From the IMG/VR virus record IMGVR_UViG_3300037418_002559, positions 15,999 to 79,998 of that record: a stretch of 64,000 bases of DNA; one strand, written 5' to 3'. Below are positions 11,987-53,327 of the stretch, one piece after another. The position numbers and the translations under genes are program-made. Positions within the stretch are counted from its first letter, which is position 1. Each line of letters begins with the position of its first letter. The notes below the pieces were generated by a model. It searched no databases, was not told where the DNA came from, and was given only the letters and a program-made list of their open reading frames with translations. Origin of the DNA: a virus. Its lineage: Duplodnaviria; Heunggongvirae; Uroviricota; Caudoviricetes.

Positions 11987-12414
11987 AGCAGCTGGTATTA
12001 AAACTGTGTCCGGGGCTGGTGTGCTCCAACTTCGGGGATCAGAAGTTGTGGTCCATACGACTGGAGGATTCTGGCAACGCGCTGGCGGCGTCCAATGAAT
12101 CGGAGGAGGACGCTTGGCTGGAGATGCTTATACGGCTGCTGCGATGCGCCACCGAGGAGGAGCTGCGGGAGCAGGGACGCTCGCTGGCACGTAGTTACAA
12201 GCCGGGGCCGAGACAGGCGTCGCCGTTTCCGCCAGTGTCTCCCAGTGGGAGGCTTGGCGTATACAAACCGAAGCGGCGCACTTACGAAACGTCGGACATA
12301 AAGGAGTTACACCAGGCTATTATTAATAAAATAGCACTAACGCAGATAGCCGCATCAGGTGTAAGTGAGTCGGACTGTCTGGAATGGATCAAGCAGCAAC
12401 TGGAGGCCGTATGA
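11977..12414 (+). CDS. hypothetical protein
   Basis: ORF track entry. Confidence 0.45.
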   Translation: MRVKQLVLKLCPGLVCSNFGDQKLWSIRLEDSGNALAASNESEEDAWLEMLIRLLRCATEEELREQGRSLARSYKPGPRQASPFPPVSPSGRLGVYKPKRRTYETSDIKELHQAIINKIALTQIAASGVSESDCLEWIKQQLEAV

Positions 12415-12929
12415 GATGGAAGTGGGCTTGCCTTGGTATTGTTGGTGTCAGCGTTGCGCTGGGCGCGGCGGTCATATCGTACTGCCGCGTGGCAATTAAG
12501 CAGCAGCATAGTCAAAAGACGCTCAAGCGCTGGGCCGCTTGGCGTGTCGCGCATCCGGCGTGGAAGAAGAGCACGGCAGAGACGCTCGCGGCGCTAGACT
12601 TTACCTGTGGCCCTATCGCCACGCTCGACGCCACTACGCCAGCCACTCTAGTGCCGTTTCAGAGTGATGACAATGTGGCCGCACTTGAACCCAGTTTGCC
12701 GCTGCTACCTAAGACGGAAATTCCGTCGGAGCCGTTGTTCGCAAGCACATACGCCCCGCCGCAAAGTACCCTGCCTTATTCTGTAATACCGTTGCCCGTT
12801 CCAGTTGCGTATCCTGCGCCTTCGCCTGTGCCAGAGCCCAGCTCATTCATCTTTATGCTGAGCGGACTCGCGGCGCTGTGCGTAGGGCGTCAATCTTTCG
12901 CTTGTACTACCTCAGAAGGAGAGAAATGA
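12411..12929 (+). CDS. membrane/secreted Pro-rich protein with C-terminal PEP-CTERM-like sorting signal
   Basis: GGAGG SD then ATG at 12411. N-terminal TM WACLGIVGVSVALGAAVI. C-terminus VPEPSSFIFMLSGLAALCVGRQS. Confidence 0.55.
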   Translation: MRWKWACLGIVGVSVALGAAVISYCRVAIKQQHSQKTLKRWAAWRVAHPAWKKSTAETLAALDFTCGPIATLDATTPATLVPFQSDDNVAALEPSLPLLPKTEIPSEPLFASTYAPPQSTLPYSVIPLPVPVAYPAPSPVPEPSSFIFMLSGLAALCVGRQSFACTTSEGEK

Positions 12930-13450
12930 ACTGTTCTACCATTTTGAATACCGAATCGTTAGCCGTCTTGGTTCTGTCGATAGGCTATGCGCTACTGGCA
13001 CTTGCGTATATTGCCTGTATAGCAAGCAAGCGCAAGACCATGCTAGGCAGAGTGCGCGAGTTTCACAAGCGCTTCGACTGCTACACGGCGTCGGACGGTG
13101 TCAGCCTGCCGCCGGAAGACGTCATGGAGCTGCGACGCAGCCTGATCGCAGAGGAATTCTGGGAGCTCATGGACGCCATGGGGCGCGACGACCTCGTTGA
13201 TGTCGCCGATGCGATCGTGGATCTGCACTATGTATTGTCCGGAACGTCGCTGGTATATGGCCTACCGGAAGACGCCGTGTTCGACGAAGTGCACAGGTCC
13301 AACATGTCCAAGGCTGAGCCGGATGGCACGGTCCATCGCCGCGCCGATGGCAAGATACTGAAGGCTGCGCGCTGGACGCCGCCTGATATCGCCGGAGTCT
13401 TGGCGCGCCACGGCGGCTCGGTAATTACGCGCAAGGCGGTAAGATCGTGA
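12926..13450 (+). CDS. MazG-like nucleoside triphosphate pyrophosphohydrolase with N-terminal TM helix
   Basis: Strong AAGGAGAG SD before the ATG at 12926. TM LAVLVLSIGYALLALAYIACIA. MazG core EEFWELMDAMGRDDLVDVADAIVDLHYV. Confidence 0.7.
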   Translation: MNCSTILNTESLAVLVLSIGYALLALAYIACIASKRKTMLGRVREFHKRFDCYTASDGVSLPPEDVMELRRSLIAEEFWELMDAMGRDDLVDVADAIVDLHYVLSGTSLVYGLPEDAVFDEVHRSNMSKAEPDGTVHRRADGKILKAARWTPPDIAGVLARHGGSVITRKAVRS

Positions 13451-20201: not shown

Positions 20202-20681
20202 ATGCCACAATTGTTCTTAGACTGCGATGGTGTCGTAGCCGATTTTGATGGTTATTTTTTGTCTGTATTTGGTGTACCTCCAACGGAGGTTGAGATCACG
20301 CATGGTACGCAGTATCTGTATGCACTGTTGCAGGGGCATAAAGATTTTTACTTTAATCTGCCGCTCTTACCAGATGCAATGCAACTATACAGCGCGGTAG
20401 CGCATCTAAAACCAATCATCCTTACCGGGCATCCGAACACCAGTACACCAGCTTGGGCCATTAACCAGAAATTGCGCTGGACGGCGCACCACTTTCCAGG
20501 CGTACAGACCATCGTGTGCCCTTCTAAAGAAAAGTGCAAACACATGAAGCGCTTCGGTGATGTACTGGTGGACGATCGTTTGAAGTACATGCATTTCTGG
20601 ACTGAGGCTGGTGGAATTTTTGTGTGGCATACTTCTGCCGAAGAGTCCATTTCAAGATTGAAAGAGCTGGATATCTTATGA
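20202..20681 (+). CDS. HAD-family 5'(3')-deoxyribonucleotidase (NT5C-like)
   Basis: N-terminal FLDCDGVVADFDG (DxDGV HAD motif I), typical of NT5C. Confidence 0.75.
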   Translation: MPQLFLDCDGVVADFDGYFLSVFGVPPTEVEITHGTQYLYALLQGHKDFYFNLPLLPDAMQLYSAVAHLKPIILTGHPNTSTPAWAINQKLRWTAHHFPGVQTIVCPSKEKCKHMKRFGDVLVDDRLKYMHFWTEAGGIFVWHTSAEESISRLKELDIL

Positions 20682-21715
20682 CGGAATTACAGCTAGTAGC
20701 GCGCGAACTGGAAAAGGCTCTGTGCCCAGAGGACGTATTCGGCGTAGATATCAAACGGTCTTTCCGACAGCTAGTCAAAATCGTACACCCTGATTTCAAC
20801 AAGAATGCACTCTTCGCGCACGAGACGATGGAGCGGCTGAACGAGCTGAAGAGCATAGCCGATGCGCGGGTGGAGGCCGGCACGTGGGGAACGCGCTTGC
20901 CGTTTCCTTGGCATGAAGTAGTTGAGATTGGCGGCTACGCGGTGGCGCAGAGACCGCTAGTCGGCGACGTTGCTGACGTTTACGTAGGGATTGAATACGT
21001 CGTCAAAGTAGCCAGAAATTCAGACGACAACGATTTGATGCGAGCCGAACGCGCGGCGCTCTCGCTCCTGGCGAGCAAAGTCAACACGAAAGTAGCGGCT
21101 GCATTTCCCACGTTGCGAGGACACTTCCAGCAGAGTAATCGTGACACAAACGTACTGCGCAAAGTACCAGATGGGTTCCTGCCTGCGGAGGAAGTCCATC
21201 GTAGAATGCCGTCTGTAGACGGACGTGCTTTGGTTTGGATGTTCAAACGGCTGCTGGTGGCGCTGGAATGGGCACATCACTGCGGGCTTGTGCACGGGGC
21301 GGTGCTGCCGTCGCACGTCATGCTCTACCCGGACAACGACGGCACCACGACCAATCCGCATCCCTGCAAGCATACAGTGCGCCTGTTAGATTGGTGCTAC
21401 AGCGTAAGGTACGCGGAGCGTACGCGGTTGTCATCCTGGGTGCCAGCCTGGACTGCGCACTATCCACCCGAGTTATTATTAAAGCAATCGGTTACACCCG
21501 CGTCGGATATTTTCATGGCAGCCAGTTTGATTGCGTATCTTGCGGGAGGTATCGACGGCACAGAAGCGCCGCTGCGAGCAGTAATCGAGCGCTGCGTGCT
21601 GGCTGATGTTACAAAGCGTTATCAAACCGTGGCCCATGTATTCACGGATTGGAATGCGGCTGCCCAGCGTATATACGGGCCACCGAAATGGGTAGACTTC
21701 AACCTGCCGGAGTAA
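20678..21715 (+). CDS. J-domain fused to a protein-kinase-like domain (degenerate catalytic loop)
   Basis: J-domain FRQLVKIVHPDFNKN (HPD). Kinase-like YVVKVAR, RAERAAL, HCGLVHGAVLPSHVML (Asp replaced), RLLDWCYS. Confidence 0.65.
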   Translation: MTELQLVARELEKALCPEDVFGVDIKRSFRQLVKIVHPDFNKNALFAHETMERLNELKSIADARVEAGTWGTRLPFPWHEVVEIGGYAVAQRPLVGDVADVYVGIEYVVKVARNSDDNDLMRAERAALSLLASKVNTKVAAAFPTLRGHFQQSNRDTNVLRKVPDGFLPAEEVHRRMPSVDGRALVWMFKRLLVALEWAHHCGLVHGAVLPSHVMLYPDNDGTTTNPHPCKHTVRLLDWCYSVRYAERTRLSSWVPAWTAHYPPELLLKQSVTPASDIFMAASLIAYLAGGIDGTEAPLRAVIERCVLADVTKRYQTVAHVFTDWNAAAQRIYGPPKWVDFNLPE

Positions 21716-22426: not shown

Positions 22427-23377
22427 ATGGGCGGAGGAAGTTGGGATACAGGGCGATACACAAGCGCCAAGACTACAAGGGCTGCAAAGGGAGTGGATGA
22501 CTTCCACTACTCAAAGACAGCAAGCAAGACTCACAGCAATCTCGACCCGAAGCGCATCAGTGCCAAGCCGTTCGCCAAATTGGAAAGCCGTGATTCGGAA
22601 GAACACCCGCAGAGTAATCCGGTGCTGGTGTGCTTCGACGTTACTGGTTCTAACTATACGCGGGCCGTCGACGCGCAGAAGCGCCTGCCGAACCTGATGG
22701 AGCTGCTCGGGCGCTACTTGCCAGATCCGCAGGTTGCCGTGGCTGCGAACGACGACTACAACTCGGTTGGCGACCAGTGCCTACAGATATCTGACTTCGA
22801 GAGCGACAATCGCGTGGACGAGCACATACGCTCCATACGGTTGACCAGCGAGGGCGGAGCCAACGATGGGGAATCCTACGACCTCATGCTGTACGCGGCG
22901 GCGCGGAAGACGACAACCGACTCCGTGGAGAAGCGCGGCAAGAAAGGCTACTTCTTTATGTACGCCGACGAGCCAATCTTCACCAAGGTAAGCGCTAACG
23001 AGGTAAAGTCCGTATTCGGCGACGTAGTACAACGGGACATCCCCATTGCGGAGATCATCGAGGAGGTGCGGCGCACTTGGCAATTGTTCGTCATATACCC
23101 TATTGGCGGCTACAAGCACGCGCGCAACCAGTACGTGGAGCTGTTCGGCGAGGAGTCGGTACTGGATTTGCAGGACGCCAATCTCATCTGCGAGCTGATA
23201 GCCTCCACTGTCGGTCTGTATGAGGGGAAGGCCACACCAGTATCTTTGGTCACCGACCTAGTATCCGTTGGTCTGGACCGAAACGAGGCGTCCACCATGG
23301 TGAGCCACGCTCTTGTAAAAACACAAAGCAGTAGCACGTTATCTACATCCGGTGGAGGCAAGGCCGCACGGTTGTAG
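22427..23377 (+). CDS. von Willebrand factor A domain protein
   Basis: MIDAS-like VLVCFDVTGSN; AAGGAGAA SD. Confidence 0.6.
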   Translation: MGGGSWDTGRYTSAKTTRAAKGVDDFHYSKTASKTHSNLDPKRISAKPFAKLESRDSEEHPQSNPVLVCFDVTGSNYTRAVDAQKRLPNLMELLGRYLPDPQVAVAANDDYNSVGDQCLQISDFESDNRVDEHIRSIRLTSEGGANDGESYDLMLYAAARKTTTDSVEKRGKKGYFFMYADEPIFTKVSANEVKSVFGDVVQRDIPIAEIIEEVRRTWQLFVIYPIGGYKHARNQYVELFGEESVLDLQDANLICELIASTVGLYEGKATPVSLVTDLVSVGLDRNEASTMVSHALVKTQSSSTLSTSGGGKAARL

Positions 23378-23597
23378 CATTGTGAGTGAGCGCCTCTGCC
23401 ACGGTAGTACCTGTGGATTCTCCCCACGGCGGCGCTTTCTTGCTTTGGATGGGCGTAGAACGGTCATGCGCCCATCGGAGTTCCTTATTGTGGGAACCAG
23501 TTGCAGCGTGAACCCGAGGCGAACGGGGCGCGTCATGCTGCGCAGGCTGCACGTAGGGAACTCCGATGGTTGCATGAACAAACGGGAAGAGGACAGA

Positions 23598-24764
23598 ATG
23601 AGTAGAGCAATCTTGGTGCAGGGCTTAGCCTATGGCGATGAGTGCAAGGGCGCAACAGTGGATTTTCTTTGCCGTCAGCTACCGGTAGACTTGGTGGTGC
23701 GGTTCAATGGCGGTAGTCAGGCAGCGCACAACGTGTGTACGACGGAGGGAGCACACCACACGTTCAGCCAATTCGGCTCTGGCACGCTTGCGGGAGAACA
23801 CGTGCGGACGCATCTTTCGCGCTTCATGCTGGTTGACCCATTGACGATGATGAACGAAGCGGCTGCTTTGCGTGAACAACTGGGAGTGCAGCCTTGGCGC
23901 GGTTTAACGGTGGATCCTCGATGCGTAATCATCACACCATTCCACAAGCAGGTGAATCGACTGCGCGAGATGGCACGCGGATTGGCGCGGCACGGCAGCT
24001 GCGGGATGGGTGTAGGCGTGGCACGCGAATGGCAGTTGAAATATGGTGACGCCGTGCTGTACGCGGAGGATGTGCTTGACACCCAGAAGGTGACGGAGAA
24101 GCTACGATTCTTGCTGAACCTTGCTTGCCAAGAGTTTGGTGTAACGCTGATGAGCTACAGTGAGATTAATCTGCGTGAGCTTGCCTACACCTACGCGAAG
24201 TGGCCGGTTGTGCTCGACACGATGCCCAAGTCCGATTTGGCGGTCTTCGAAGGTGCGCAGGGCGTCCTGTTGGATGAAACGCACGGCGAAGCGCCTTATC
24301 ACACATGGACGGATTGTACGTTCAACAATGCGGACACGCTTTGCGCAGAGGCCGGTATTACGGATCGCTTCAGAGTGGGTTGCGCGCGTGCCTACCTTAC
24401 GCGACACGGCGCTGGGCCATTGCCTGGCGCTTTAGCGCACGACCCTGCTTGGCACCCAGCGGAGCCGCACAATGTCACCAATGAGTTCCAAGGACCGTTT
24501 CGCGTAGCACCAATGAACTTCTTCTTGCTACGCAAGGCAATGAGCTACATCGGCAGCCTAGATTGCCTAGCAATCAGCCATCTGGATGTGTACGGCGGCG
24601 GCGTACTGGACACGCGTTTGATGCACGATCTGCTGGGCGTATTCGAGCAAGAGCTGGCTACGCCTATTGGAATCAAGGCTTGGGGGCCTACCGCACTCAA
24701 CCGTGAGTTCACGCCAGCGTGGACCACGGCTTGGGCAAGGATCTTAGAAGAGGCTGCGCAATGA
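23598..24764 (+). CDS. adenylosuccinate synthetase family protein, short divergent form (PurZ-like candidate)
   Basis: GDECKGA corresponds to PurA GDEGKGK. VVRFNGGSQAAHN, FEGAQGVLLD, RAYLTRHGAGP. 388 aa versus about 430 for bacterial PurA. Confidence 0.75.
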   Translation: MSRAILVQGLAYGDECKGATVDFLCRQLPVDLVVRFNGGSQAAHNVCTTEGAHHTFSQFGSGTLAGEHVRTHLSRFMLVDPLTMMNEAAALREQLGVQPWRGLTVDPRCVIITPFHKQVNRLREMARGLARHGSCGMGVGVAREWQLKYGDAVLYAEDVLDTQKVTEKLRFLLNLACQEFGVTLMSYSEINLRELAYTYAKWPVVLDTMPKSDLAVFEGAQGVLLDETHGEAPYHTWTDCTFNNADTLCAEAGITDRFRVGCARAYLTRHGAGPLPGALAHDPAWHPAEPHNVTNEFQGPFRVAPMNFFLLRKAMSYIGSLDCLAISHLDVYGGGVLDTRLMHDLLGVFEQELATPIGIKAWGPTALNREFTPAWTTAWARILEEAAQ

Positions 24765-31556: not shown

Positions 31557-32459
31557 ATGGATCCTGTATTTTTGTTGGCGCTTGTGGTATTCGCACTGCT
31601 GTGTACGTGCCTACTGCTTGCTGGTTCTGTATTTTCTGTGAAGACGCAGACGGCGTACGTTGTCGAGCGCTTCGGTAAGTTCAACCGCGTCGCGCGCGCT
31701 GGCTTGAACTTCAAGCTGCCCTTTGTAGAGACGAAACATCTCATCAATTTGGCAACATTTCAACTGGATGGCAAGATTGAAACCAAAACGAAAGATAATG
31801 TATTCGTGACTCTGCCGGTTTCGTGCCAGTGGCACGTTGGCGAGAGCGACGCCGCCGTGCAAGCGTACTACTACAAGCTGACCGCCATAAAGCAGATCAG
31901 CTCGTATCTGTACAACATTCTGCTCGGGCACGTACCGGACATGGACCTGGACGATTTGTTCATAAGCCAACAGGCGGTTTCGGCCAAGGTTTCAGCCGAG
32001 CTAGAGGCGCAGATGACTTGCTTTGGTGTGGAGATTATCAAGGTGATGATAACTGACATCTGCCCCGATCAGGGCGTGGTCAAGGCCATGAATAGCATCA
32101 ACGAGCAGACTCGTCTGGCCGTGGCCAATAAGGCGCAGGGCGACGCCGAGTACGTACTTAAGGTGCGACAGGCAGAGGCTGATGCAGAAGTAAAGAGGCT
32201 TGCTGGAGTCGGTGTGGCTAAGGAGCGAGAGGCCATTGCTGAGGGCTGGGAAGAATCCATTAAGAAGATAAAGGCAGCAACTTCGCTGGACGACAGTGCC
32301 GCCACCTTCTTGCTGCTGTTTACCAACTGGACCGACATGCTGCGCGAAGTCGGCTCAACCAAGAATTCCACAATGATATTCATGCCACCGGGGCCGGAAG
32401 GTCTGCAGAACTTCCAGGCGACCATGACGAACGCTCTGCTTGCGGCGGGTGTAAAGTAA
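31557..32459 (+). CDS. SPFH/band-7 (stomatin/HflC-like) membrane protein
   Basis: N-terminal TM; YVVERFGKFNRVARAGLNFKLPFVE matches the SPFH core consensus. Confidence 0.75.
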   Translation: MDPVFLLALVVFALLCTCLLLAGSVFSVKTQTAYVVERFGKFNRVARAGLNFKLPFVETKHLINLATFQLDGKIETKTKDNVFVTLPVSCQWHVGESDAAVQAYYYKLTAIKQISSYLYNILLGHVPDMDLDDLFISQQAVSAKVSAELEAQMTCFGVEIIKVMITDICPDQGVVKAMNSINEQTRLAVANKAQGDAEYVLKVRQAEADAEVKRLAGVGVAKEREAIAEGWEESIKKIKAATSLDDSAATFLLLFTNWTDMLREVGSTKNSTMIFMPPGPEGLQNFQATMTNALLAAGVK

Positions 32460-46268: not shown

Positions 46269-47936
46269 ATGACCGCAAAGAAAGTTACCGCCACCGTGAA
46301 GAAGTCCGCTAAACCAGAAGCCGTAAAAGCCACCGCCGCGCGCCTCACAAAGAAAGCTGACGCCGCCATCAAGAAGGCTGTCAGCGCGACTGCATCGCGG
46401 ATGGCCGATGAAGTCATCGCTCCCACACCGGTCAAGGCGAAGGAAATCAATGTCCGTAAACGGAACAAGGTTGGACTGGGTGTTATTGCAGATGAATTAC
46501 TCAGGCCAGTCAAAGCGCCAGTAACGCCGCTTACGAAGCTTTTGCTCAATGCGGGCTTCGTACACGCTCGTTCAGAAGCTGCCGACGAGCGCGACATTGC
46601 GCACGGCTACACCCACCCGGACGGCTCCGCTGCGATGTTCGTCCACTCCGCTACGAGTACGGACGTAGCGCCACGCTGGACCATCAAACAAGCGGACGGC
46701 ACGACGCTGAATGGTAAGACCGCCAAAGAGCTCGCGCTCGCTCTAACAAAGCCAGAAGCGCTTCCGGCGAATGTAACGTCGGCGCTGGACCTGCTTCGTA
46801 AGCTGACCAAAGGAACGTACCGACTCAACGACCTTGCCGGCGACGGTAATTACAAGGCACGCTTGCAGTTGCTGAAAAAGCTACTCAATACGGACAAGGT
46901 GCTTGTGAAGCAAAGCGGCGTCAACAACCTTGTCAAAGCGTTTTACTCGGCTCTGGACATCAAGACTGCAGCCGCTGCAGTCATGGCGTCTGAGTTCGAA
47001 GCGCGGTGCACTAGCCTTTTCAAGCAAGAGCAGAAGGCGGAGCGCGTTGTAGCGCGCGTAGAGAAGGCTGAAGTCAAAGAAGTTTTGAAGAACACGGCTT
47101 TTCAGCGCGAAGTCCACGATGGGAAGCCGATTCTTCCTGGTGTAAAGAAGCTGAGTGCCAAGAAACAGCGCGCCGCCGACGAAGCAGCCAAGGCCGAACT
47201 CGCAGCACAAATAGCACACAAGCGGCGGCAGGAAGAGTATACGCCGATTGCGGTCCCCCGTCCAGATTCAAAGGTAGATATCGACCTTTCCAGCATCTGT
47301 TTACTGGAAGACCCAAACAATGGAATCGTACTCATGTGTTTGGAAAAGCCAAATTCCCAGGGCGCGATTTGCGTGTATAATAATGGAAGTCGCGTTGCAG
47401 CCGGTGTTGTACCGACAGAAGTTTTGAATTCCCTGCGTCCCTTAGTGTCAGAAGACCTAGTGAGGGATGTGAACCAGTTACTGCACCCGATAACTGCGGG
47501 TGTCATTGTAACTCCACAAGCTGAACAACAGCTAACCGCAGTACTCAACTACTGCAAGGAGAATATCATCATGTCGACCGAAACCGCAGTAAAGACCAAG
47601 AAGTTCGCTCCTCCCGCCAGCGCCGCCAAGAAGGCATCGAAGAAGGCCGCGAAGCCAGCGCTCAAGACAGCCAAGAAGTCAGCCCACGACAAGGCTGAGC
47701 GCGCGCCGCGTATCACCGAAGATCGCAAGATCAAGGCGCTCATCACGGCGAAGGACAAGGAGCGCATGCCGCGCGAAGGCAGCTTCTGCTTCGGACAAGT
47801 CCAGGCCGTCATCGGCAGCAAGACTGTCAGCGAGGCGCAGGCCAAGCTGGACAAGAGTGGCCTGAATCCCAACAACCGTAAGCTGGAAGTCGCGTGGCTC
47901 CAGAAGCAAGGCTTCATCGAAGTAGCCACCGCCTAA
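46269..47936 (+). CDS. histone H1-like Lys/Ala-rich protein (555 aa)
   Basis: AKKA/KKAV-type low-complexity regions at both termini (KKVTATVKKSAKPEAVKATAARLTKKADAAIKKAV; KKASKKAAKPALKTAKKSA). Confidence 0.55.
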   Translation: MTAKKVTATVKKSAKPEAVKATAARLTKKADAAIKKAVSATASRMADEVIAPTPVKAKEINVRKRNKVGLGVIADELLRPVKAPVTPLTKLLLNAGFVHARSEAADERDIAHGYTHPDGSAAMFVHSATSTDVAPRWTIKQADGTTLNGKTAKELALALTKPEALPANVTSALDLLRKLTKGTYRLNDLAGDGNYKARLQLLKKLLNTDKVLVKQSGVNNLVKAFYSALDIKTAAAAVMASEFEARCTSLFKQEQKAERVVARVEKAEVKEVLKNTAFQREVHDGKPILPGVKKLSAKKQRAADEAAKAELAAQIAHKRRQEEYTPIAVPRPDSKVDIDLSSICLLEDPNNGIVLMCLEKPNSQGAICVYNNGSRVAAGVVPTEVLNSLRPLVSEDLVRDVNQLLHPITAGVIVTPQAEQQLTAVLNYCKENIIMSTETAVKTKKFAPPASAAKKASKKAAKPALKTAKKSAHDKAERAPRITEDRKIKALITAKDKERMPREGSFCFGQVQAVIGSKTVSEAQAKLDKSGLNPNNRKLEVAWLQKQGFIEVATA

Positions 47937-48317: not shown

Positions 48318-49163
48318 ATGAAAAATTTAACGCTCATCATACCCACGCATGGCCGGGTGGGAAAGCAAACCACGCTCCAAGCATTACCGACCAAACTTCA
48401 GGCCGAGGTCATTCTCGTTACTTCTCTGCCAGGAGAAGCGAAAGAGCTGCGCGCCCTTTACCCTAAGAACGAGGTAGCCGTAGCCAAGGGGACTACGTCT
48501 ATCGCTACCAAGCGGCACTGGATTATGCAGAACATTAAAGGCCGCATGCTGTTCATGCTGGACGACGACATAGCCTTCTTTGAGCGCTGCCCGCCCAAGT
48601 GGCGCGTGTGGGAGCCGCACCGCAAGGCCTACGCCTTGGCCAAGGAGGCCCCGGCCGACGCTGCCTTGATGAAGCGCCTGTATCCGCAGGACGCCAAGCT
48701 GCTCTCTTTGTTTCAGGACATGGATAAACGGGTGGCTTCACACAAACCAGCCATGATTGGTATAGCGCATCGGCGGCACAGCGATAAGAAGCAGGAATCA
48801 TGGGAAGTCAACGCGCGCATGATGTACGCATTCGGCGTAGATCCGGCCATTTACAAGGAAGAGAAAATTCGGTTCGATCGTGTAGGACTTCGTGAGGATT
48901 TCCACGTTGTTCTAAGCATGCTGCGCAGAGGACACGAGTGTCATAATTATCTGGAGCTACTGAACAATGAGTATGGCTCGTTCGGCGCTGCTGGTGGGTG
49001 CAGTGGTGAACGCTCCATGGAGTACAGCAACGAGCAGTGCTACGCGCTGCAGAAGCTGCACCCGGAGTTCGTCAAAGTTGTGGAGAGAGATTACAAAGGC
49101 TCCTTTCCACGCAAAGAGGTAGTCGTAGCCTGGAAGAAAGCATTTGAAAGTAGCAAGCAATGA
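48318..49163 (+). CDS. GT-A-fold (DXD) glycosyl/phospho-group transferase
   Basis: GGAG SD; LTLIIPTHGR (GT2-like N-terminus); MLFMLDDDIAFF (DXD). Confidence 0.6.
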   Translation: MKNLTLIIPTHGRVGKQTTLQALPTKLQAEVILVTSLPGEAKELRALYPKNEVAVAKGTTSIATKRHWIMQNIKGRMLFMLDDDIAFFERCPPKWRVWEPHRKAYALAKEAPADAALMKRLYPQDAKLLSLFQDMDKRVASHKPAMIGIAHRRHSDKKQESWEVNARMMYAFGVDPAIYKEEKIRFDRVGLREDFHVVLSMLRRGHECHNYLELLNNEYGSFGAAGGCSGERSMEYSNEQCYALQKLHPEFVKVVERDYKGSFPRKEVVVAWKKAFESSKQ

Positions 49164-49858
49164 TCATAGACCATAAAATTGTACGTAATAGCGGCTCCAC
49201 GCTGGAGCCGTGCATCTATAAGAGCGGCCCAGGTACAGTCGCGCAAGGTAGGAAGATGCTGGCGTATCCACACGTATTTGCGCCTGTGCTCGGTATTACT
49301 GACCATGGCTACTGTATGCCACGTCTGAATGAACCGTCCAGTGTCTCTCTTTCTGCAGCGCTGGATCGATTAGTCGTACTCTGGAACTCGACGGACATTG
49401 GACTGCTTGTCGCAACGCGTGCGCAACACCACGAAACGCAAGTAGCGCCTTTGGCTACTGAGCCGCTCCTGCGGCGCGCGCTGGAGCAGTGGCACGCACG
49501 TGTGCAGACAGTACACGGTACTGCTGTCAACGTTGTGCACGGTGATCCAACACTTGAGAATTACATGTACAATGGTGTCTGGCTGGACCCCAGTACGCGC
49601 CCGTTGCCTTTGGAAGCTGAGTTGGATGGCGGCAAGTTACTACAGTCTTACTTTGGCTACGGCCATTGTGGCACTACGGAAGAACTGCAAGCGATCAGAA
49701 AATTCATTCACACATGTGGACTGAATCTAGATTTGTGCGCGTATTACCTGGTCACACACTTGGTACGCTTGTACCGTGTTCAGCCGCAGGCCCAGTTCTG
49801 GGCAGTTACAGTAGCCGAAACGCTTGAGGAAAGAATGGAGGATTTTAAATGCAAGTAG
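49160..49858 (+). CDS. APH/choline-kinase-fold small-molecule kinase
   Basis: Brenner motif VVHGDPTLENYMY (HGDxxxxN) then WLDPS; ATGA overlap with the upstream gene. Confidence 0.6.
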   Translation: MIIDHKIVRNSGSTLEPCIYKSGPGTVAQGRKMLAYPHVFAPVLGITDHGYCMPRLNEPSSVSLSAALDRLVVLWNSTDIGLLVATRAQHHETQVAPLATEPLLRRALEQWHARVQTVHGTAVNVVHGDPTLENYMYNGVWLDPSTRPLPLEAELDGGKLLQSYFGYGHCGTTEELQAIRKFIHTCGLNLDLCAYYLVTHLVRLYRVQPQAQFWAVTVAETLEERMEDFKCK

Positions 49859-50583
49859 TAATCTTAGCTGCTGGGCGTGGCATACGCTTCGGCTCGGATA
49901 TTGTGCCGAAGATACTGCATACAGCCAGAGGCAAAACGTTGTTCAGACATGCCTTGGAGCAAGCTGCGGAGGTAAGCCGAACGCCAGTAGTCGTATGCAT
50001 GGCTGGGCTGGAAGAACGTCTGTCCAAAAATACACCCGTAAGTATTTATCCGTTGTTCAGCCCTATCCACGTCACACAGCAAGGTGCAGCGCTGTCGTTG
50101 CTTACGGCGGCTGGTCGTATGCAAGATGATGAGCCACTACTTGTCATGGACTGCGATACTATCTTTGCAAGTGGTACTATGATGCGCTTCGCTGACTTCG
50201 CTACGCGTGCATTCGCTGCTGGAAAAAACTCGGCTGTACTGACCTTCGTTCCAAACGACGACAGTGCGCGCTACAGCTTCGCAGCTGTCGATACGCAGGA
50301 AGATACGCCGTTCCCACACGTCGCCATGGTAGTGGAAAAGGAGCGTATTAGTAACGTGGCCACTTGCGGCGTCCATGCCTTCGCGTCTTGGACTGTCGTT
50401 CGGCAGGCCATTTATGAAATGGTTATTTTACAGACCATGACGAACGGAGAGTATTACTTAGCCCCTGCGCACAACAACATCGTTGGTACGACAGCCATGC
50501 TGATCGTTGCTGACCAGTTCAACCACGTTGGTACACCTGCTGAATTGGAGGCCTATGAGCGAGCAGTTTCCGCGACTCGATGA
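49849..50583 (+). CDS. sugar-phosphate nucleotidyltransferase (GlmU/IspD/RmlA-like NTP_transferase)
   Basis: N-terminal VVILAAGRGIRFGSDIVPKILHTARGKTL signature; 10-nt overlap with the kinase gene. Confidence 0.65.
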   Translation: MQVVILAAGRGIRFGSDIVPKILHTARGKTLFRHALEQAAEVSRTPVVVCMAGLEERLSKNTPVSIYPLFSPIHVTQQGAALSLLTAAGRMQDDEPLLVMDCDTIFASGTMMRFADFATRAFAAGKNSAVLTFVPNDDSARYSFAAVDTQEDTPFPHVAMVVEKERISNVATCGVHAFASWTVVRQAIYEMVILQTMTNGEYYLAPAHNNIVGTTAMLIVADQFNHVGTPAELEAYERAVSATR

Positions 50584-51418
50584 GTTTGTTCGGTTTGTAA
50601 ATGAACGTTGGAGCATACACCTGAAGCGCACAGAAGGTCTGCCGGCACCATGGACGAAGGATCCTATACTACAAAAGTACCGCTTTACAAATGTTCGCCG
50701 AGAAGATGACCGTGTTACTCGCTGGATACATGAGCAGTGGCTACGCGACCGCGCGACCGACGAGCTGTGGCTCGCTTTCTACGTTAGTCGCGTATTCAAT
50801 AAGCCGGAAACATTGGCCGCAATTGGTTGGCCGTTACCATGGAGCGCTGCTACGAAGAAACGAGTGTATACCGCCATTAAGAAGAGGCAAGCAAATGGTG
50901 AGCGGGTCTTCAACGCAGCCTACATCGTATCATCACATGGGCGCGCGACTTGCTCTAAGACTGAATACTACATGGAGATCTTCGACGAACTGTGGGCGCG
51001 ACGTAAAGTTGTTCGGCCCGTTCACGGAGATAGTCTGGAATCATTTTTCAGTAGATTGTGCGAACAGCCCGGTATCGGCGGCTTTATGGGAGCTCAAGTA
51101 GTGGCTGACATAAAAGCGTACGAGCCACTATACGGCTCTGACGACCTGTACACGTTTGCACGTAGCGGCCCTGGTAGTCGGCGTGGCATGCATTGGGTGC
51201 GTGGAACGGAGCCACTGCCGCGGTACAACGAGAGTGCATGGCAGGCAGACTTACTACTACTTATGGCTGCAGTGCGGCCTAAGCTCAAAGTATCGCTGGA
51301 TGCTCAGAATCTACAGAATTGCCTGTGCGAGTTCAGTAAGTACTGCAAGGTGAAGTTCAACGGCGGACGGGCTAAACAGATATTCCGGCCGAGTGTAGCT
51401 GCTTACACCAGCCTATAA
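50555..51418 (+). CDS. putative aGPT-Pplase-like DNA base hypermodification enzyme
   Basis: GGAGG SD 3 nt before the ATG. N-terminal WSIHLKRTEGLPAPWTKDPILQKYRFTNVRREDDRVTRW matches my recollection of the aGPT-Pplase family. The call rests on context and memory. Confidence 0.45.
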   Translation: MSEQFPRLDEFVRFVNERWSIHLKRTEGLPAPWTKDPILQKYRFTNVRREDDRVTRWIHEQWLRDRATDELWLAFYVSRVFNKPETLAAIGWPLPWSAATKKRVYTAIKKRQANGERVFNAAYIVSSHGRATCSKTEYYMEIFDELWARRKVVRPVHGDSLESFFSRLCEQPGIGGFMGAQVVADIKAYEPLYGSDDLYTFARSGPGSRRGMHWVRGTEPLPRYNESAWQADLLLLMAAVRPKLKVSLDAQNLQNCLCEFSKYCKVKFNGGRAKQIFRPSVAAYTSL

Positions 51419-51440: not shown

Positions 51441-52511
51441 ATGTTTAGTTATAAAGCACATGATGTAAATGAAGCGCTCTCATTCGGCCTGCAGCATTTA
51501 CTGCGTGAAGGCATCGAAGAAACCAGTCGTGTGGGTCCAGTGCTCGTAGCACCCGGCCCTGTGTGTATTGAATATGTAAACCCAAGACAGCGAGTTTTGT
51601 ATAGTCCAACACGTGACGCGAACCACGTATTCCATCTTATGGAATCACTGTGGCTGCTGTCTGGTAGCAACGAGATTGAATTTCCGGTATTCTTTAACAA
51701 AGCCTACGCACAGTTCAGCGACGACGGAACTACGATATGGGACAGCTACGGTTGGCGCTGGCGGCAGTTCTTTGGCTATGATCAATTGGAAGAAATCGTC
51801 GCAGAGCTAAAGAGGAATCCCAGCTCAAGGCGCTGCGTGCTGAGTATGTGGAATGGCGCAGAATGGTCGGCAGGCAATGGTCCTGATCCGTCTTGGGCGC
51901 GTGAAGACGGGCTTTGGATGCAAAGCGATCTTAGTGTAGCTTGCAATGGTGGCAAAGCGGTCCCCTGCAACACGCATGCGTATTTCGCTGTACGTGGTGG
52001 TAAGCTCAACATGACGGTCATGAATCGCTCCAACGATGCTATGTGGGGCTGCTTCGGCGCGAATGCCGTTCACTTCAGCTTACTGCTGGAATACATGGCT
52101 GTGCGTGTTGGGTTGCCTATGGGTAGTTACTTCCAGTTCACAAACAACCTGCACACCTACACCGATAAATTCAGTGTAGACATGCTCAATACAATAGAGC
52201 ACGAATGCGATACGGTTGGCGCGCTGCCGCAACCTGGCCCTGCGATTGAACCTGGATTTGACGAGGATCTGCGCCTATTCATGCCTTGGGCACTGTCAGT
52301 TATACGTTCGACGCCGGGGGATACTTTGCGCGCGCTGAACGTACCACAATTAGAAACACCATTCATGTATTCCGTAGTAGCTCCTATGTTTTTGTTCTGG
52401 GTGTATCGTAAGTGGAAAGACGAGTACAGCAGCTCTATTTGCTTGAATGGTATTGATGCGCCAGACTGGCAACGGGCTTGTGAAGAATGGAAGGAGCGTA
52501 GACGTAAGTGA
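51441..52511 (+). CDS. ThyA-family pyrimidine C5 hydroxymethylase/methylase (likely dUMP hydroxymethylase)
   Basis: MESLWLLSGSNE, DQLEEIVAELKRNPSSRRCVLSMWN, catalytic PC in VPCNTHAYFAVRGGKLNMTVMNRSNDAMWG, TNNLHTY. 356 aa with a C-terminal extension. Confidence 0.8.
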   Translation: MFSYKAHDVNEALSFGLQHLLREGIEETSRVGPVLVAPGPVCIEYVNPRQRVLYSPTRDANHVFHLMESLWLLSGSNEIEFPVFFNKAYAQFSDDGTTIWDSYGWRWRQFFGYDQLEEIVAELKRNPSSRRCVLSMWNGAEWSAGNGPDPSWAREDGLWMQSDLSVACNGGKAVPCNTHAYFAVRGGKLNMTVMNRSNDAMWGCFGANAVHFSLLLEYMAVRVGLPMGSYFQFTNNLHTYTDKFSVDMLNTIEHECDTVGALPQPGPAIEPGFDEDLRLFMPWALSVIRSTPGDTLRALNVPQLETPFMYSVVAPMFLFWVYRKWKDEYSSSICLNGIDAPDWQRACEEWKERRRK

Positions 52512-53095
52512 AAGAGGTTCTGCAATTCATCATGGAAGGTGGTAGTGTGCAGCGCTACCACACGCGTCCGGGCATAAGGCCGGACACAAACGCGCACCAC
52601 AGCCATGGCGTCCTGATGCTGGCCAGTCTGCTGGCCGGTCAGAATGAGCAAACAGGCTGCACGCAGGCTAGTGTTAATTTACTCATGGCATGTGCTACGC
52701 ATGATTTGGCGGAGCAACTGGCCTGCGATGTAAGCGCGCCAGCCAAGCGGTTGCTCGGTATACGTGAGCTTCTGCATGACTTGGAGTCCAACGAGCTGAG
52801 AACGCATCTGCTCGACTACGAGCAGCACCTTACAGAAGACGAGCGTACTATTCTGCAGCTTGCCGATTGCTTTGATGGTATGATGTATTGCTGTCGAGAG
52901 CTTGCTCTGGGTAATAGAAATGCCTTGCTCATCTGGCGTCGGTTTTGCAGTTACATAACTAAGATTACAGCACAACACGACATTGAGTTTGAAATTGGGC
53001 TGCGCGCCAGTGTGATGTTTGAATCCATCAAAGAAATCTACAGAGAGGTTACAAGTGTCACAGGACCAGAATTCGACATCTTCAAAGGCAAATGA
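52508..53095 (+). CDS. HD-domain phosphohydrolase, YfbR/OxsA/DatZ-like 5'-deoxynucleotidase
   Basis: RYHTRP...NAHHSHGVLMLASLLA...CATHDLAEQ...DCFDGMMY. GTGA overlap with the ThyA-like stop. Confidence 0.7.
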   Translation: MKEVLQFIMEGGSVQRYHTRPGIRPDTNAHHSHGVLMLASLLAGQNEQTGCTQASVNLLMACATHDLAEQLACDVSAPAKRLLGIRELLHDLESNELRTHLLDYEQHLTEDERTILQLADCFDGMMYCCRELALGNRNALLIWRRFCSYITKITAQHDIEFEIGLRASVMFESIKEIYREVTSVTGPEFDIFKGK

Positions 53096-53327
53096 TGTGC
53101 AGGTTGGTGGTACGCATTACCAAAATGCTGTTGGAACTTGCCCTCATTGTGGCGGCCCCATCCAACATTGGGATCTGTTCGGTAAAATGCCGTACTTAGT
53201 TGGGCAGGTCTGCCGCTACGTACTACGCTTCCAAGGCAAGAATGGCAAGGAAGACATAGAAAAGGCTGGGCACTTCCTTCAGAAATTGAAGGAAGTCTAC
53301 TTCCCAGAGCAAGAAAAGAAGCCTTAA
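53019..53327 (+). CDS. small Zn-ribbon protein (VGGTHYQ...CPHCGG...YVLRFQGK), possibly DUF3310-like
   Basis: The track gives a TTG start at 53019. A GTG at 53097 after AAAGG is the likelier start and overlaps the HD stop. Confidence 0.45.
   Translation: MNPSKKSTERLQVSQDQNSTSSKANDVQVGGTHYQNAVGTCPHCGGPIQHWDLFGKMPYLVGQVCRYVLRFQGKNGKEDIEKAGHFLQKLKEVYFPEQEKKP

Follow-up and report, generated by a model that had tools for sequence, protein, structure and literature searches.

A conserved phage cassette of a GT-A glycosyltransferase, an APH-fold kinase and a nucleotidyltransferase, predicted to make and use a sugar donor for glycosylation of a thymine-derived base in DNA

Phage RB69 and Acinetobacter phage DLP3 carry fusions of a nucleotidyltransferase (NTase) and a kinase (gp52:53 and gp82, respectively) that are proposed to make UDP-arabinose for the arabinosylation of 5-hydroxycytosine in DNA, and AfhE of HY126, also an NTase-kinase fusion, is cited as a characterized dual-function enzyme (PMC13326640). 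The substitutions N177D and D169N in the thymidylate synthase (TS) homologue serve as criteria for a 5-hydroxy-dCMP synthase (PMC13326640). Thymidine hypermodification in PaMx11, M6, ViI and PhiW-14 involves a dUMP hydroxymethylase, a P-loop 5-hmdU DNA kinase (5-HMUDK) and an amino-acid:DNA transferase (PMC8989533, PMC5889632, PMC11472151), and the DNA of PaMx11 bears 5-hmdU-derived modifications (PMC8989533). Base J of kinetoplastids is produced by a JBP hydroxylase and the glucosyltransferase JGT, and phage TET/5mYOX and TAGT enzymes glycosylate 5hmC (PMC8256090; 10.1101/2023.12.21.572611). GT-A/TAGT glycosyltransferases encoded near ThyS genes, with APH phosphotransferases nearby, have been catalogued as pathways of DNA sugar hypermodification (10.1101/2023.12.21.572611). 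TAGT stands for TET-associated glycosyltransferase, a GT-A family that was defined through TET/JBP dioxygenases and 5hmC. The definitions of TAGT, HMUDK and aGPT-Pplase reportedly go back to Iyer et al. in 2013. For the Ralstonia jumbo phage RSL1, which appears repeatedly below, our literature search found no paper on DNA modification.

The locus described here lies in a 64-kb window, the whole stretch of DNA that was analyzed, which belongs to a contig of approximately 100 kb; all statements of absence refer to this window. A GT-A glycosyltransferase (GT), an APH-fold kinase and an NTase are followed directly by a set of genes typical of thymidine hypermodification (Table 1). We consider it probable that the kinase and the NTase would make an NDP-sugar and that the GT would add this sugar to 5-hmdU in phage DNA, giving a hypermodification similar to base J. 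The original prediction had a GT-A transferase with a DXD motif immediately upstream of the kinase, and this arrangement was found, the two ORFs overlapping by 4 nt (ATGA); the 10-nt overlap between kinase and NTase was likewise borne out by the ORF coordinates. Ribosome-binding sites (GGAG or GGAGG) lie 5' of the ATGs of the GT (GGAG), the NTase and the gene after the NTase. The GT, the kinase and the NTase are real genes and not chance ORFs, given the numbers of homologues of the kinase and the NTase and the retention of the seven-gene order in independent metagenomic contigs with 41 to 74% amino acid identity. The window also encodes a family-A DNA polymerase, a primase-like DUF3854/DUF5906 protein, a ligase, an SNF2 helicase, a PD-(D/E)XK nuclease, an endolysin and a 1,125-aa tail-fibre-like ORF, and the relatives of the region are IMG/VR viral contigs, which confirms the phage setting of the cassette. 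Searching 50,697 phage records with the nucleotide sequence of the 4.8-kb region returned no matches.

Table 1. Genes of the cassette and of the adjoining conserved module (positions within the 64-kb window)
Feature	Position	Strand	Length	Remarks
TAGT-type GT-A glycosyltransferase	48318-49163	+	281 aa	
APH/choline-kinase-fold kinase	49160-49858	+	232 aa	predicted sugar kinase
Sugar-1-phosphate-type nucleotidyltransferase	49849-50583	+	244 aa	predicted NDP-sugar pyrophosphorylase
HMUDK_hel/PaMx11-gp50-like helical protein	50555-51418	+		Pfam HMUDK_hel PF18723, 2.1e-42
Thymidylate synthase homologue, dUMP-hydroxymethylase type	51441-52511	+		Pfam Thymidylat_synt 1.1e-19; phrog_5131 1e-92
HD-domain YfbR-like 5'-deoxynucleotidase	52508-53095	+		Pfam YfbR-like 7e-9; top PDB match YfbR 1.5e-5
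DUF3310 protein, last gene of the conserved module	53019-53327	+		Pfam DUF3310 24.0 bits, at cut-off

The kinase ORF includes VVHGDPTLENYMY; its product has a bilobal kinase fold whose C-lobe is helical, as is typical for APH and ChoK enzymes. The predicted Brenner motif was present and intact: the catalytic loop HxDxxxxN (H127-G-D129-P-T-L-E-N134) and the metal-binding D143 are invariant in 20 close homologues, and in 68 divergent members H127 and G128 do not vary, and D129, N134 and D143 each reach a conservation of 90% or more. These motifs align with HGD..N and (I)DF of Bud32/TP53RK. K21, in the strand formed by residues 18 to 22, is invariant in the homologues, and helix 26-35 has a conserved Gln29 and no obvious Glu. 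The original prediction had named a modelled kinase without a functional ATP site as speaking against it; no such defect was seen in the fold or in the catalytic motif. The kinase has an APH/choline-kinase fold, but its family is described by no current Pfam model. At E ≤ 0.1 it matched neither APH (PF01636) nor Choline_kinase and gave one spurious 2CSK_N match, NCBIfam gave no match, and Pfam APH was matched weakly by 12 of the 68 family members (best E, 8e-5). There are 21 close homologues of the kinase, and at E ≤ 0.001 the family numbers 432 representative clusters; a tblastn search of phage records with the kinase gave no match.

Two profiles of the kinase were used, A1 from close homologues and A2 from the broader family, the latter being required for comparison with the PDB. 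Profile A1 returned noise from the PDB (APH(3') at E 1.7). With profile A2, the top score among 177,635 PDB sequences was 28 bits, below that of the kinase part of RB69 gp52:53; RB69p052 scored 48.8 bits (E 6e-12) and RSL1 ORF236 scored 38.8 bits. The corresponding hhalign probabilities were 96.7% and 96.2%, and HGDPxxxN, (I/L)DP and D-x-[GA]-K-[LV]-L-x-[SA]-x-x-G-Y are shared motifs. The nearest relatives of the window enzymes are phage proteins of putative DNA glycosylation, namely, the kinase part of gp52:53 in RB69 and the ORF237-236-235 cassette in RSL1. The third-ranked BFVD match of the kinase was a 441-aa "NTP transferase" (E 0.027), which may be a further fusion of an NTase and a kinase. 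A role of the kinase as a 5-hmdUMP (NMP) kinase was considered and rejected on the grounds of chemistry, since the acceptors of APH-fold enzymes are hydroxyl groups and the phosphorylation of NMPs is the work of P-loop enzymes.

The NTase ORF starts MQVVILAAGRGIRFGSDIVPK and contains the predicted signature LAAGRGIRF...PK (G-x-G-x-R ... K, nucleotide binding), in which L6, A7, G9, G11, R13 and K21 are invariant in 26 to 27 homologues. In all, 28 homologues were found. The signature aligns with LAAGKGTRM...PK of GlmU, in an alignment whose register is ambiguous at the uracil-contacting Gln. The NTase scored above the curated cut-offs of the sugar-1-phosphate nucleotidyltransferase models (PF00483/PF12804), and its fold is full length, with the sugar-binding half included. 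By both structure and profile, the nearest enzymes act on hexose-1-P (4evw, RmlA, GlmU and GalU), the structure model having been built from an alignment without the RSL1 sequence. Scores against specific NCBIfam models were low (MurU NF045761, 30 bits with a cut-off of 250; GlmU TIGR01173, 47 bits with a cut-off of 367), and the match to the NTase part, RB69p053, was marginal (hhalign probability, 39%). The NTase belongs with the sugar-1-phosphate nucleotidyltransferases and not with MobA, a grouping that the original prediction had named as the one that would speak against it. Taken together, the folds and motifs of the two enzymes fit phosphorylation of a small molecule followed by nucleotidylylation of a sugar-1-phosphate.

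The GT matched Pfam TAGT (PF20691) over residues 6 to 216 with 50.8 bits (cut-off, 27.5; E 2.7e-13) and phrog_842, "beta-glucosyl-HMC-alpha-glucosyltransferase," at 2e-41, and its LDDDIAF segment provides the acidic DDD motif of the DXD type. Its top match among cultured phages was RSL1 ORF237, at 34% identity over the full length (E 1e-40); solved structures yielded no sequence matches, and a Pfam scan found no TET_JBP in the window. We predict that the GT is a DNA glycosyltransferase acting on 5-hmdU, the choice of base being suggested by the uracil-type TS homologue alone.

In principle, such a pair could work in the manner of LicA/LicC and convert an alcohol or polyol other than a sugar (choline, ethanolamine, glycerol, ribitol or inositol, for example) into an NDP-alcohol, from which a phospho-substituent would be placed on the DNA itself or on a sugar linked to it. 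We regard this as unlikely in view of the hexose-1-P relatives of the NTase, of a sole cassette transferase that is a GT-A/TAGT enzyme and not LicD or a CDP-alcohol phosphotransferase, and of the kinase's closeness to the RB69 and DLP3 kinase parts, which are assigned to arabinose activation (PMC13326640).

The genes downstream of the cassette, a context absent from the original prediction, form a thymidine-hypermodification island. The order of the four genes is identical to that in PaMx11, with identities of 40% to gp51 (TS homologue), 31% to gp50 (helical protein), 29% to gp52 (HD protein) and 28% to gp53 (DUF3310 protein). The TS homologue shares the long C-terminal extension of gp51 and keeps Cys146, Asp169 and Asn177, with His147 replaced by Asn as in gp51 (E. 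coli ThyA numbering). Because the dUMP-specific Asn177 and Asp169 are kept, its residues place it outside the 5-hydroxy-dCMP synthase type (N177D, D169N), and it is predicted to make 5-hmdUMP. The gp50-like gene likely starts at ATG 50555 rather than at TTG 50507, as a GGAGG site precedes the former. Homologues of its product were found in 451 phage records, including PaMx11 gp50 and RSL1 ORF231, and some of these records label the match aGPT-Pplase. The gp50-like protein consistently accompanies the TS homologue in clusters for thymidine hypermodification; it had no sequence matches among solved structures. The HD nucleotidase, which has homologues at the same position in PaMx11 and PhiJL001, probably edits the nucleotide pool by removing a canonical dNMP. 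The DUF3310 protein matches PHROG families of nucleotide-kinase-associated domains, and its gene is syntenic in all relatives, in PaMx11 and in PhiJL001.

Searches of the 64-kb window, with one query per family, detected neither a P-loop 5-HMUDK (tblastn with PaMx11 gp49, best E 0.38, and Pfam scans of about 50 ORFs) nor an aGPT-Pplase2/AADT amino-acid:DNA transferase (tblastn with PaMx11 gp46, best E 0.50). No PLP, radical-SAM or FAD enzymes were detected in the window, and neither a SIS/arabinose-5-P isomerase nor an adjacent phosphatase was found among the approximately 50 window ORFs scanned. The sole HAD-type match among these ORFs was NT5C (20202-20681), about 29 kb from the cassette. 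A PurA-like gene (23352-24764) and the MazG-like and HD genes raised the possibility of a 2-aminoadenine (Z) genome, which was not supported, since the closest relatives of the PurA-like protein are bacterial PurA and the "PurA-like" proteins of mycobacteriophages, and that of the HD protein is YfbR.

The presence of HMUDK_hel with no P-loop 5-HMUDK detected, together with the chemical plausibility of a primary alcohol in DNA as an acceptor for an APH-fold kinase, is consistent with a second reading. Here the APH-fold kinase would be a non-orthologous substitute for 5-HMUDK that phosphorylates the hydroxymethyl group of 5-hmdU in DNA, possibly with the HMUDK_hel protein, and the NTase and the GT would each work on their own, with a host sugar-1-phosphate or the phosphorylated base as substrate. 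We find this quite improbable. The gp50-like proteins also occur in kinase-free, GT-only clusters (PhiJL001 and LuckyBarnes), and thus the helical protein needs no kinase partner; no aGPT-Pplase2 able to use 5-PmdU was detected in the window. In addition, the kinase family accompanies NTases, and in RB69p052 and RSL1 ORF236 the kinase is attached to an NTase or an NTase-like N-terminal part, which points to consecutive steps on one small molecule.

The GT-kinase-NTase order was present in all close relatives, in members 26 to 33% identical (P0040/L006 and P0150/L011) and in RSL1 (ORF237-236-235), where the GT and the NTase are the best or significant cultured-phage homologues. A search for related loci with profile A1 found 10 viral loci, mostly close relatives. 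When eight distant members of the kinase family were looked up singly, five had a Pfam-recognized NTase no more than two genes downstream of the kinase, and distant loci adjoin genes for TS, dCMP deaminase, dUTPase, DNA methylase or PolA. The three genes form a conserved unit with translational coupling, and we therefore favor a donor route in which the kinase and then the NTase supply the neighboring GT-A enzyme. The cassette sits directly upstream of the gp50-like gene, in the slot that gp46-49 occupy in PaMx11, and this position within the island makes phage DNA the probable acceptor.

A GT sequence does not fix the acceptor, and about 65% of surveyed phage GT-containing contigs are not beside a base-modification gene (10.1101/2023.12.21.572611), which would suit a cassette that has nothing to do with DNA and glycosylates a virion protein or the host envelope (seroconversion or superinfection exclusion), its nucleotide-gene neighbors being accidental. 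We think this very unlikely, because the cassette is coupled to and syntenic with the gp50-like, TS and HD genes across lineages, in the hypermodification slot of PaMx11, the GT falls in the TAGT family and in a PHROG named for a DNA glucosyltransferase, and distant kinase members adjoin the nucleotide and DNA genes listed above.

For the preferred pathway, in which a sugar is activated and transferred to DNA, we infer substrates and products from the folds, catalytic motifs, gene order, coupling, homologies and recurrent co-occurrence. The TS homologue would convert dUMP to 5-hydroxymethyl-dUMP, as suggested by its homology to PaMx11 gp51, the HD 5'-deoxynucleotidase would help to bias the nucleotide pool, and the family-A polymerase of the phage would put 5-hmdU into phage DNA. 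In parallel, the APH-fold kinase would use ATP to phosphorylate a sugar, assumed to be a free sugar, most simply at the anomeric position, and the NTase would join this sugar phosphate to an NTP, yielding an NDP-sugar. The TAGT-type GT would then move the sugar onto the hydroxymethyl group of 5-hmdU in DNA, and the product, an O-glycosylated, base-J-like replacement of thymine, should block restriction and other nucleases. A more specific version, in which the DNA bears a base-J-like glycosyl-hmdU with a rare sugar made only by the viral two-enzyme route, is a possibility that we put forward tentatively. It is much more likely than the highly improbable scheme, without precedent if true as a nucleotidyl activation of a DNA base, in which the kinase phosphorylates 5-hmdU in the polymer, the NTase caps the phosphate group with an NMP to give an NDP-activated C5-methylene, and the GT-A or gp50-like protein resolves this with a nucleophile.

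If the prediction holds, this phage group and the cultured phage RSL1 replace thymine by a glycosylated 5-hydroxymethyluracil with a virus-made donor, and the use of virus-made donors is extended beyond the cytosine arabinosylation described for RB69 and DLP3, to include thymine as well as GT-A/TAGT enzymes. Such a modification is relevant to how phages withstand restriction, CRISPR and type IV systems, and the kinase, the NTase and the DNA GT could serve for enzymatic labelling of 5hmU. The kinase family could mark further DNA-glycosylation pathways, since the loci examined sit by NTases and by DNA-modification or nucleotide-metabolism genes. The original prediction had taken a phage-encoded activation route as a sign of an unusual donor, since phages normally borrow host NDP-sugars; the route stands as the best reading, but precedents exist (PMC13326640; 10.1101/2023.12.21.572611). 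A virus-made sugar donor has counterparts in other phages, and the likely target, a modified thymine, would be the extension.

The pair had also been likened to LicA/LicC, AmgK/MurU and NahK/GlmU. The kinase-then-NTase order and its coupling are conserved, but the pair has no family-level sequence membership in these systems (no Pfam APH or Choline_kinase match; MurU and GlmU below the cut-offs), and its end user is a DNA-type GT and not a cell wall or teichoic acid pathway. As with base J and the TET-TAGT systems, the pathway is predicted to leave a glycosylated 5-hydroxymethylpyrimidine in the DNA, its GT belongs to the TAGT GT-A family, and APH phosphotransferases occur near such GTs. However, the hydroxymethyl base would arise before replication through the TS homologue and not after replication through a dioxygenase, no methyltransferase or TET/JBP genes were found in the window, and the donor is apparently made by the virus instead of being taken from the host. 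The PaMx11 pathway shares the core module of the gp50-like, TS, HD and DUF3310 genes, also found in PhiJL001, and has its modification-specific genes directly upstream of that module. In the window, these are GT-kinase-NTase in place of 5-HMUDK and aGPT-Pplase2/AADT, which leads us to predict that the hydroxymethyl group is O-glycosylated and not phosphorylated and then displaced.

Like RB69, DLP3 and HY126, the locus combines a phage APH-fold kinase and a sugar-1-P-type NTase with a TS homologue and a DNA glycosyltransferase, and, as in RB69 and DLP3, the virus is predicted to make its own NDP-sugar donor for DNA glycosylation. In contrast to the NTase-kinase fusions of these three phages, the window enzymes are encoded by separate, overlapping genes with the kinase first. 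The RB69 and DLP3 enzymes are accompanied by an arabinose-5-phosphate isomerase and a phosphatase, and neither was found in the window, so the sugar route must differ. Their arabinosyltransferases match structures such as BshA, MshA and sucrose-phosphate synthase, whereas the window GT is a TAGT-type GT-A enzyme, and their TS homologues are of the D169N, N177D type, whereas that of the window is of the uracil type; the modified base is probably derived from T and the sugar is probably a different one. The region ORF238-ORF230 of RSL1 has the TAGT GT (ORF237), the APH-domain kinase (ORF236) and the NTase (ORF235; 28% identity), with HMUDK_hel (ORF231) and the TS homologue (ORF230) after the NTase. 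It differs in that ORF236 bears an additional, degenerate NTase-like N-terminal half and in the presence of two further TAGT GTs, a sulfotransferase and an "APS kinase," which suggests that the glycan of RSL1 may be longer and possibly sulfated.

The three ORFs of the original prediction were all found at exactly the positions it gave, and the TAGT-type GT-A glycosyltransferase (GT), the kinase of the APH/choline-kinase fold, and the sugar-1-phosphate-type nucleotidyltransferase (NTase) are real genes. They lie on one strand, tightly packed, with overlaps of 4 nt (ATGA) between GT and kinase and 10 nt between kinase and NTase, and they look translationally coupled; a ribosome-binding site (GGAG or GGAGG) lies ahead of the start of the GT, of the NTase, and of the next gene. 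The window is a tailed-phage genome encoding a family-A polymerase, primase-like DUF3854/DUF5906, a ligase, an SNF2 helicase, a PD-(D/E)XK nuclease, an endolysin, and a 1125-aa tail-fiber-like ORF, and its relatives are IMG/VR contigs. All relatives examined encode, at the position of the window's 555-aa protein, a protein of 519 to 678 aa without a Pfam match, flanked by a DUF2786/DUF7168 protein on one side and a glycosyltransferase on the other. The PEP-CTERM sorting motif of another window protein may be a pointer to the host.

Genes of the cassette, the downstream module, and other observations in the window
Feature	Position	Strand	Description
PEP-CTERM protein	12384-12929	+	sorting motif
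MazG/PRA-PH	12878-13450	+	pyrophosphohydrolase
NT5C-type nucleotidase	20202-20681	+	deoxypyrimidine 5'-nucleotidase
ORF	20624-21715	+	363 aa
PurA homolog	23352-24764	+	adenylosuccinate-synthetase homolog
SPFH/Band-7 protein	31557-32459	+	
Lys/Ala-rich protein	46269-47936	+	555 aa; no family match
GT	48318-49163	+	281 aa; LDDDIAF in sequence
Kinase	49160-49858	+	232 aa; includes VVHGDPTLENYMY
NTase	49849-50583	+	244 aa; N-terminus MQVVILAAGRGIRFGSDIVPK
gp50-like protein	50555-51418	+	HMUDK_hel; likely start, ATG 50555
TS homolog	51441-52511		thymidylate-synthase homolog
HD nucleotidase	52508-53095		YfbR-like 5'-deoxynucleotidase
DUF3310 protein	53019-53327		

The kinase had 21 close homologs, its profile search recovered 432 representative clusters at E values of ≤0.001, and no Pfam, PHROG, or NCBIfam model matched it. 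Residues H127-G-D129-x4-N134 and D143, whose counterparts in the profile search were the catalytic loop and metal-binding Asp of Bud32/TP53RK, were invariant in the close homologs, and their conservation across 68 divergent members was at least 90%. In those divergent members, K21, D156, and R203 were invariant, and K159 was conserved to at least 90%. The AlphaFold model, built from 20 homologs, had a pLDDT of 95.8 and a pTM of 0.90. With the catalytic residues conserved and the fold confident, neither sequence nor model gave a sign of the nonfunctional ATP site that had been named beforehand as grounds for rejecting the proposal. On another contig (L009, JGI 3300014873), a C5 DNA methyltransferase gene is followed immediately by the gene for P0110, a fusion of a MazG (PRA-PH) domain with a member of the same kinase family. 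Within the window, the 363-aa ORF gave weak, subthreshold matches to a protein-kinase domain (E, 7.5e-4) and DnaJ (E, 7e-4) and may be a second, ePK-like kinase of the phage.

The NTase (28 homologs) scored above the cutoffs of both Pfam NTP_transf_3 and NTP_transferase, and a 27-sequence profile matched the NDP-sugar pyrophosphorylase 4evw full-length (E, 2.5e-15), followed by GlmU, GalU, MurU, RmlA, and ManC. These results place the NTase, by sequence, with the sugar-1-phosphate enzymes and not with MobA, the grouping that had been named beforehand as speaking against the proposal. Its top NCBIfam matches, the GlmU N-terminal domain, AglF, and MurU, were each far under the equivalog threshold. 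The JGI gene call on the source contig has 194 aa (P0166, 80% coverage) and probably lacks the GxGxR motif at the N-terminus; a better model is the ORF of 244 aa that starts at ATG 49849, which has a GGAGG ribosome-binding site and whose N-terminus is conserved in 26 homologs. The folds would also permit a LicA/LicC-like product, an NDP-alcohol instead of an NDP-sugar, but the nearest relatives of the NTase and its GT-A partner speak against this, and we consider it improbable.

The original prediction recognized the GT-kinase-NTase locus but overlooked the downstream genes and the probable DNA target. The gene after the NTase matched Pfam HMUDK_hel ("5-hmdU DNA kinase, helical domain"; 2e-42), where 5-hmdU is 5-hydroxymethyl-dU, and its product had no match among solved structures. 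It is followed by a thymidylate-synthase (TS) homolog (phrog_5131, 1e-92), the HD nucleotidase gene, and the DUF3310 gene. The seven-gene order from GT to DUF3310 is repeated in independent contigs at 41 to 74% identity, and the four genes after the NTase belong to one unit with the cassette. They match gp50 to gp53 of PaMx11, in which thymidine hypermodification via 5-hmdU has been established by experiment (PMC8989533), and the equivalent PhiJL001 genes. The TS homolog is 40% identical to PaMx11 gp51 and has in common with it an H147N change and a long C-terminal extension. It keeps Cys146, Asp169, and Asn177 (E. coli ThyA numbering). By published criteria (PMC13326640), the retained Asn177 would make dUMP its substrate, and the retained Asp169 would set it apart from the 5-hydroxy-dCMP synthases. 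Each of the thymidine-hypermodification clusters that we examined had a gp50-like protein together with a TS homolog.

Directly upstream of the gp50-like gene, the GT-kinase-NTase cassette occupies the site of the modification-specific genes of PaMx11, namely, gp46 (PUGT, a glycine:DNA transferase), gp47 (FAD lyase), gp48 (acetyltransferase), and gp49 (P-loop 5-hmdU DNA kinase). Homologs of gp49 and gp46 were not found in the window, which covers 64 kb of a source contig of ~100 kb, and Pfam scans of approximately 50 window ORFs revealed no P-loop kinase or sugar-metabolism enzymes. The window thus shows neither of the enzymes that define the 5-PmdU pathway, the P-loop kinase and the amino-acid:DNA transferase. 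As no P-loop kinase was found, the cassette kinase itself might be the DNA 5-hmdU kinase; however, gp50-like proteins also occur in glycosyltransferase-only, kinase-free clusters (PhiJL001 and LuckyBarnes), and NTases accompany the kinase family, being joined to it in RB69p052 and RSL1 ORF236, so that this role is slightly less probable still than an NDP-alcohol product.

NDP-sugar supply by the kinase and NTase, with the TAGT GT glycosylating 5-hmdU in phage DNA, is the reading that we favor, with reasonable, not full, confidence. The TS homolog would make 5-hmdUMP, with the HD nucleotidase editing the nucleotide pool, and the phage polymerase would put 5-hmdU into DNA. The kinase would phosphorylate a sugar, the NTase would convert it to an NDP-sugar, and the GT would move the sugar onto the hydroxymethyl group of 5-hmdU in DNA. 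We infer all of these substrates; the folds, motifs, operon structure, homologies, and co-occurrence are observed. The NT5C-type nucleotidase fits pyrimidine pool editing. An acceptor other than DNA is the least probable alternative, as synteny and coupling to the nucleotide module speak against it.

The PurA homolog (Pfam, 5.7e-45) and the MazG protein, which this phage encodes besides its thymine-modification island, hint that purine nucleotides may be altered as well, possibly in the manner of PurZ/2-aminoadenine. The best matches of the former, however, are bacterial PurA (PDB E, 8e-26) and "PurA-like" proteins of mycobacteriophages Bxz1/I3 (36 to 38% identity), so that it does not support a 2-aminoadenine (Z) genome.

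In a comparison that used a single HMM and a single database size, the profile of the kinase family scored RB69p052 at 48.8 bits (E, 6e-12), RSL1 ORF236 at 38.8 bits, and the best PDB sequence at 28.2 bits; hhalign probabilities were 96.7% for RB69p052 and 96.2% for ORF236. RB69 gp52:53, DLP3 gp82, and HY126 AfhE are NTase-kinase proteins, the first two proposed to make UDP-arabinose for phage DNA arabinosylation and AfhE cited as a characterized dual-function enzyme (PMC13326640). The top cultured-phage homolog of the GT is ORF237 of Ralstonia phage RSL1 (34% identity; E, 1e-40). Next to it come ORF236, whose APH domain is preceded by a degenerate, NTase-like N-terminal part, and then ORF235, an NTase that shares 28% identity with the window NTase, so that the GT-kinase-NTase order is that of the window. 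Further along in RSL1 are two more TAGT GTs, a sulfotransferase (Sulfotransfer_2, ORF232), an HMUDK_hel protein, and a TS homolog, and the cluster (NC_010811.2, 158288-171172) also has an annotated APS kinase (ORF238). The extra GTs, sulfotransferase, and APS kinase suggest that RSL1 DNA may bear an oligosaccharide, possibly sulfated. Our literature search found no experimental study of RSL1 DNA or its modification, and this cultured phage is therefore the obvious test system. TAGT-kinase-NTase trios recur around kinase-family members only 26 to 33% identical to the window kinase. A second kinase subfamily (metagenomic contigs L007, L024, and L026) lies in TS-kinase-(~180 aa)-NTase-(400 to 440 aa, no Pfam match) arrays, beyond which come either dCMP deaminase and PolA or dUTPase and a DNA methylase; these arrays probably represent another, different DNA-modification pathway, and that of L024 includes a PP-binding (acyl-carrier) protein. 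A survey of phage DNA glycosyltransferases places "APH phosphotransferase" near GT-A/GT-B genes linked to ThyS or 5mYOX (10.1101/2023.12.21.572611).

The original interpretation is partly supported. The biochemical logic of a donor-activation pair was correctly predicted, and it is that of the RB69/DLP3 donor pathway and of AmgK/MurU-type salvage pairs. The family assignments went too far, since the LicA/LicC, AmgK/MurU, and NahK/GlmU models were tested and did not match the pair, and the rarity of phage-encoded donor activation was overstated. The system also lacks what defines that of RB69, namely, an NTase-kinase fusion, an isomerase with a phosphatase, and a TS carrying D169N. With no isomerase detected in the window and no phosphatase close to the cassette, sugar supply would be simpler here than for arabinose in RB69, and the sugar probably differs. 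Overall, this uncharacterized system is best placed in a known class, the glycosylation of phage DNA by systems that encode their own NDP-sugar synthesis, from which it is predicted to differ in its thymine-derived base, GT-A enzyme, and split genes.
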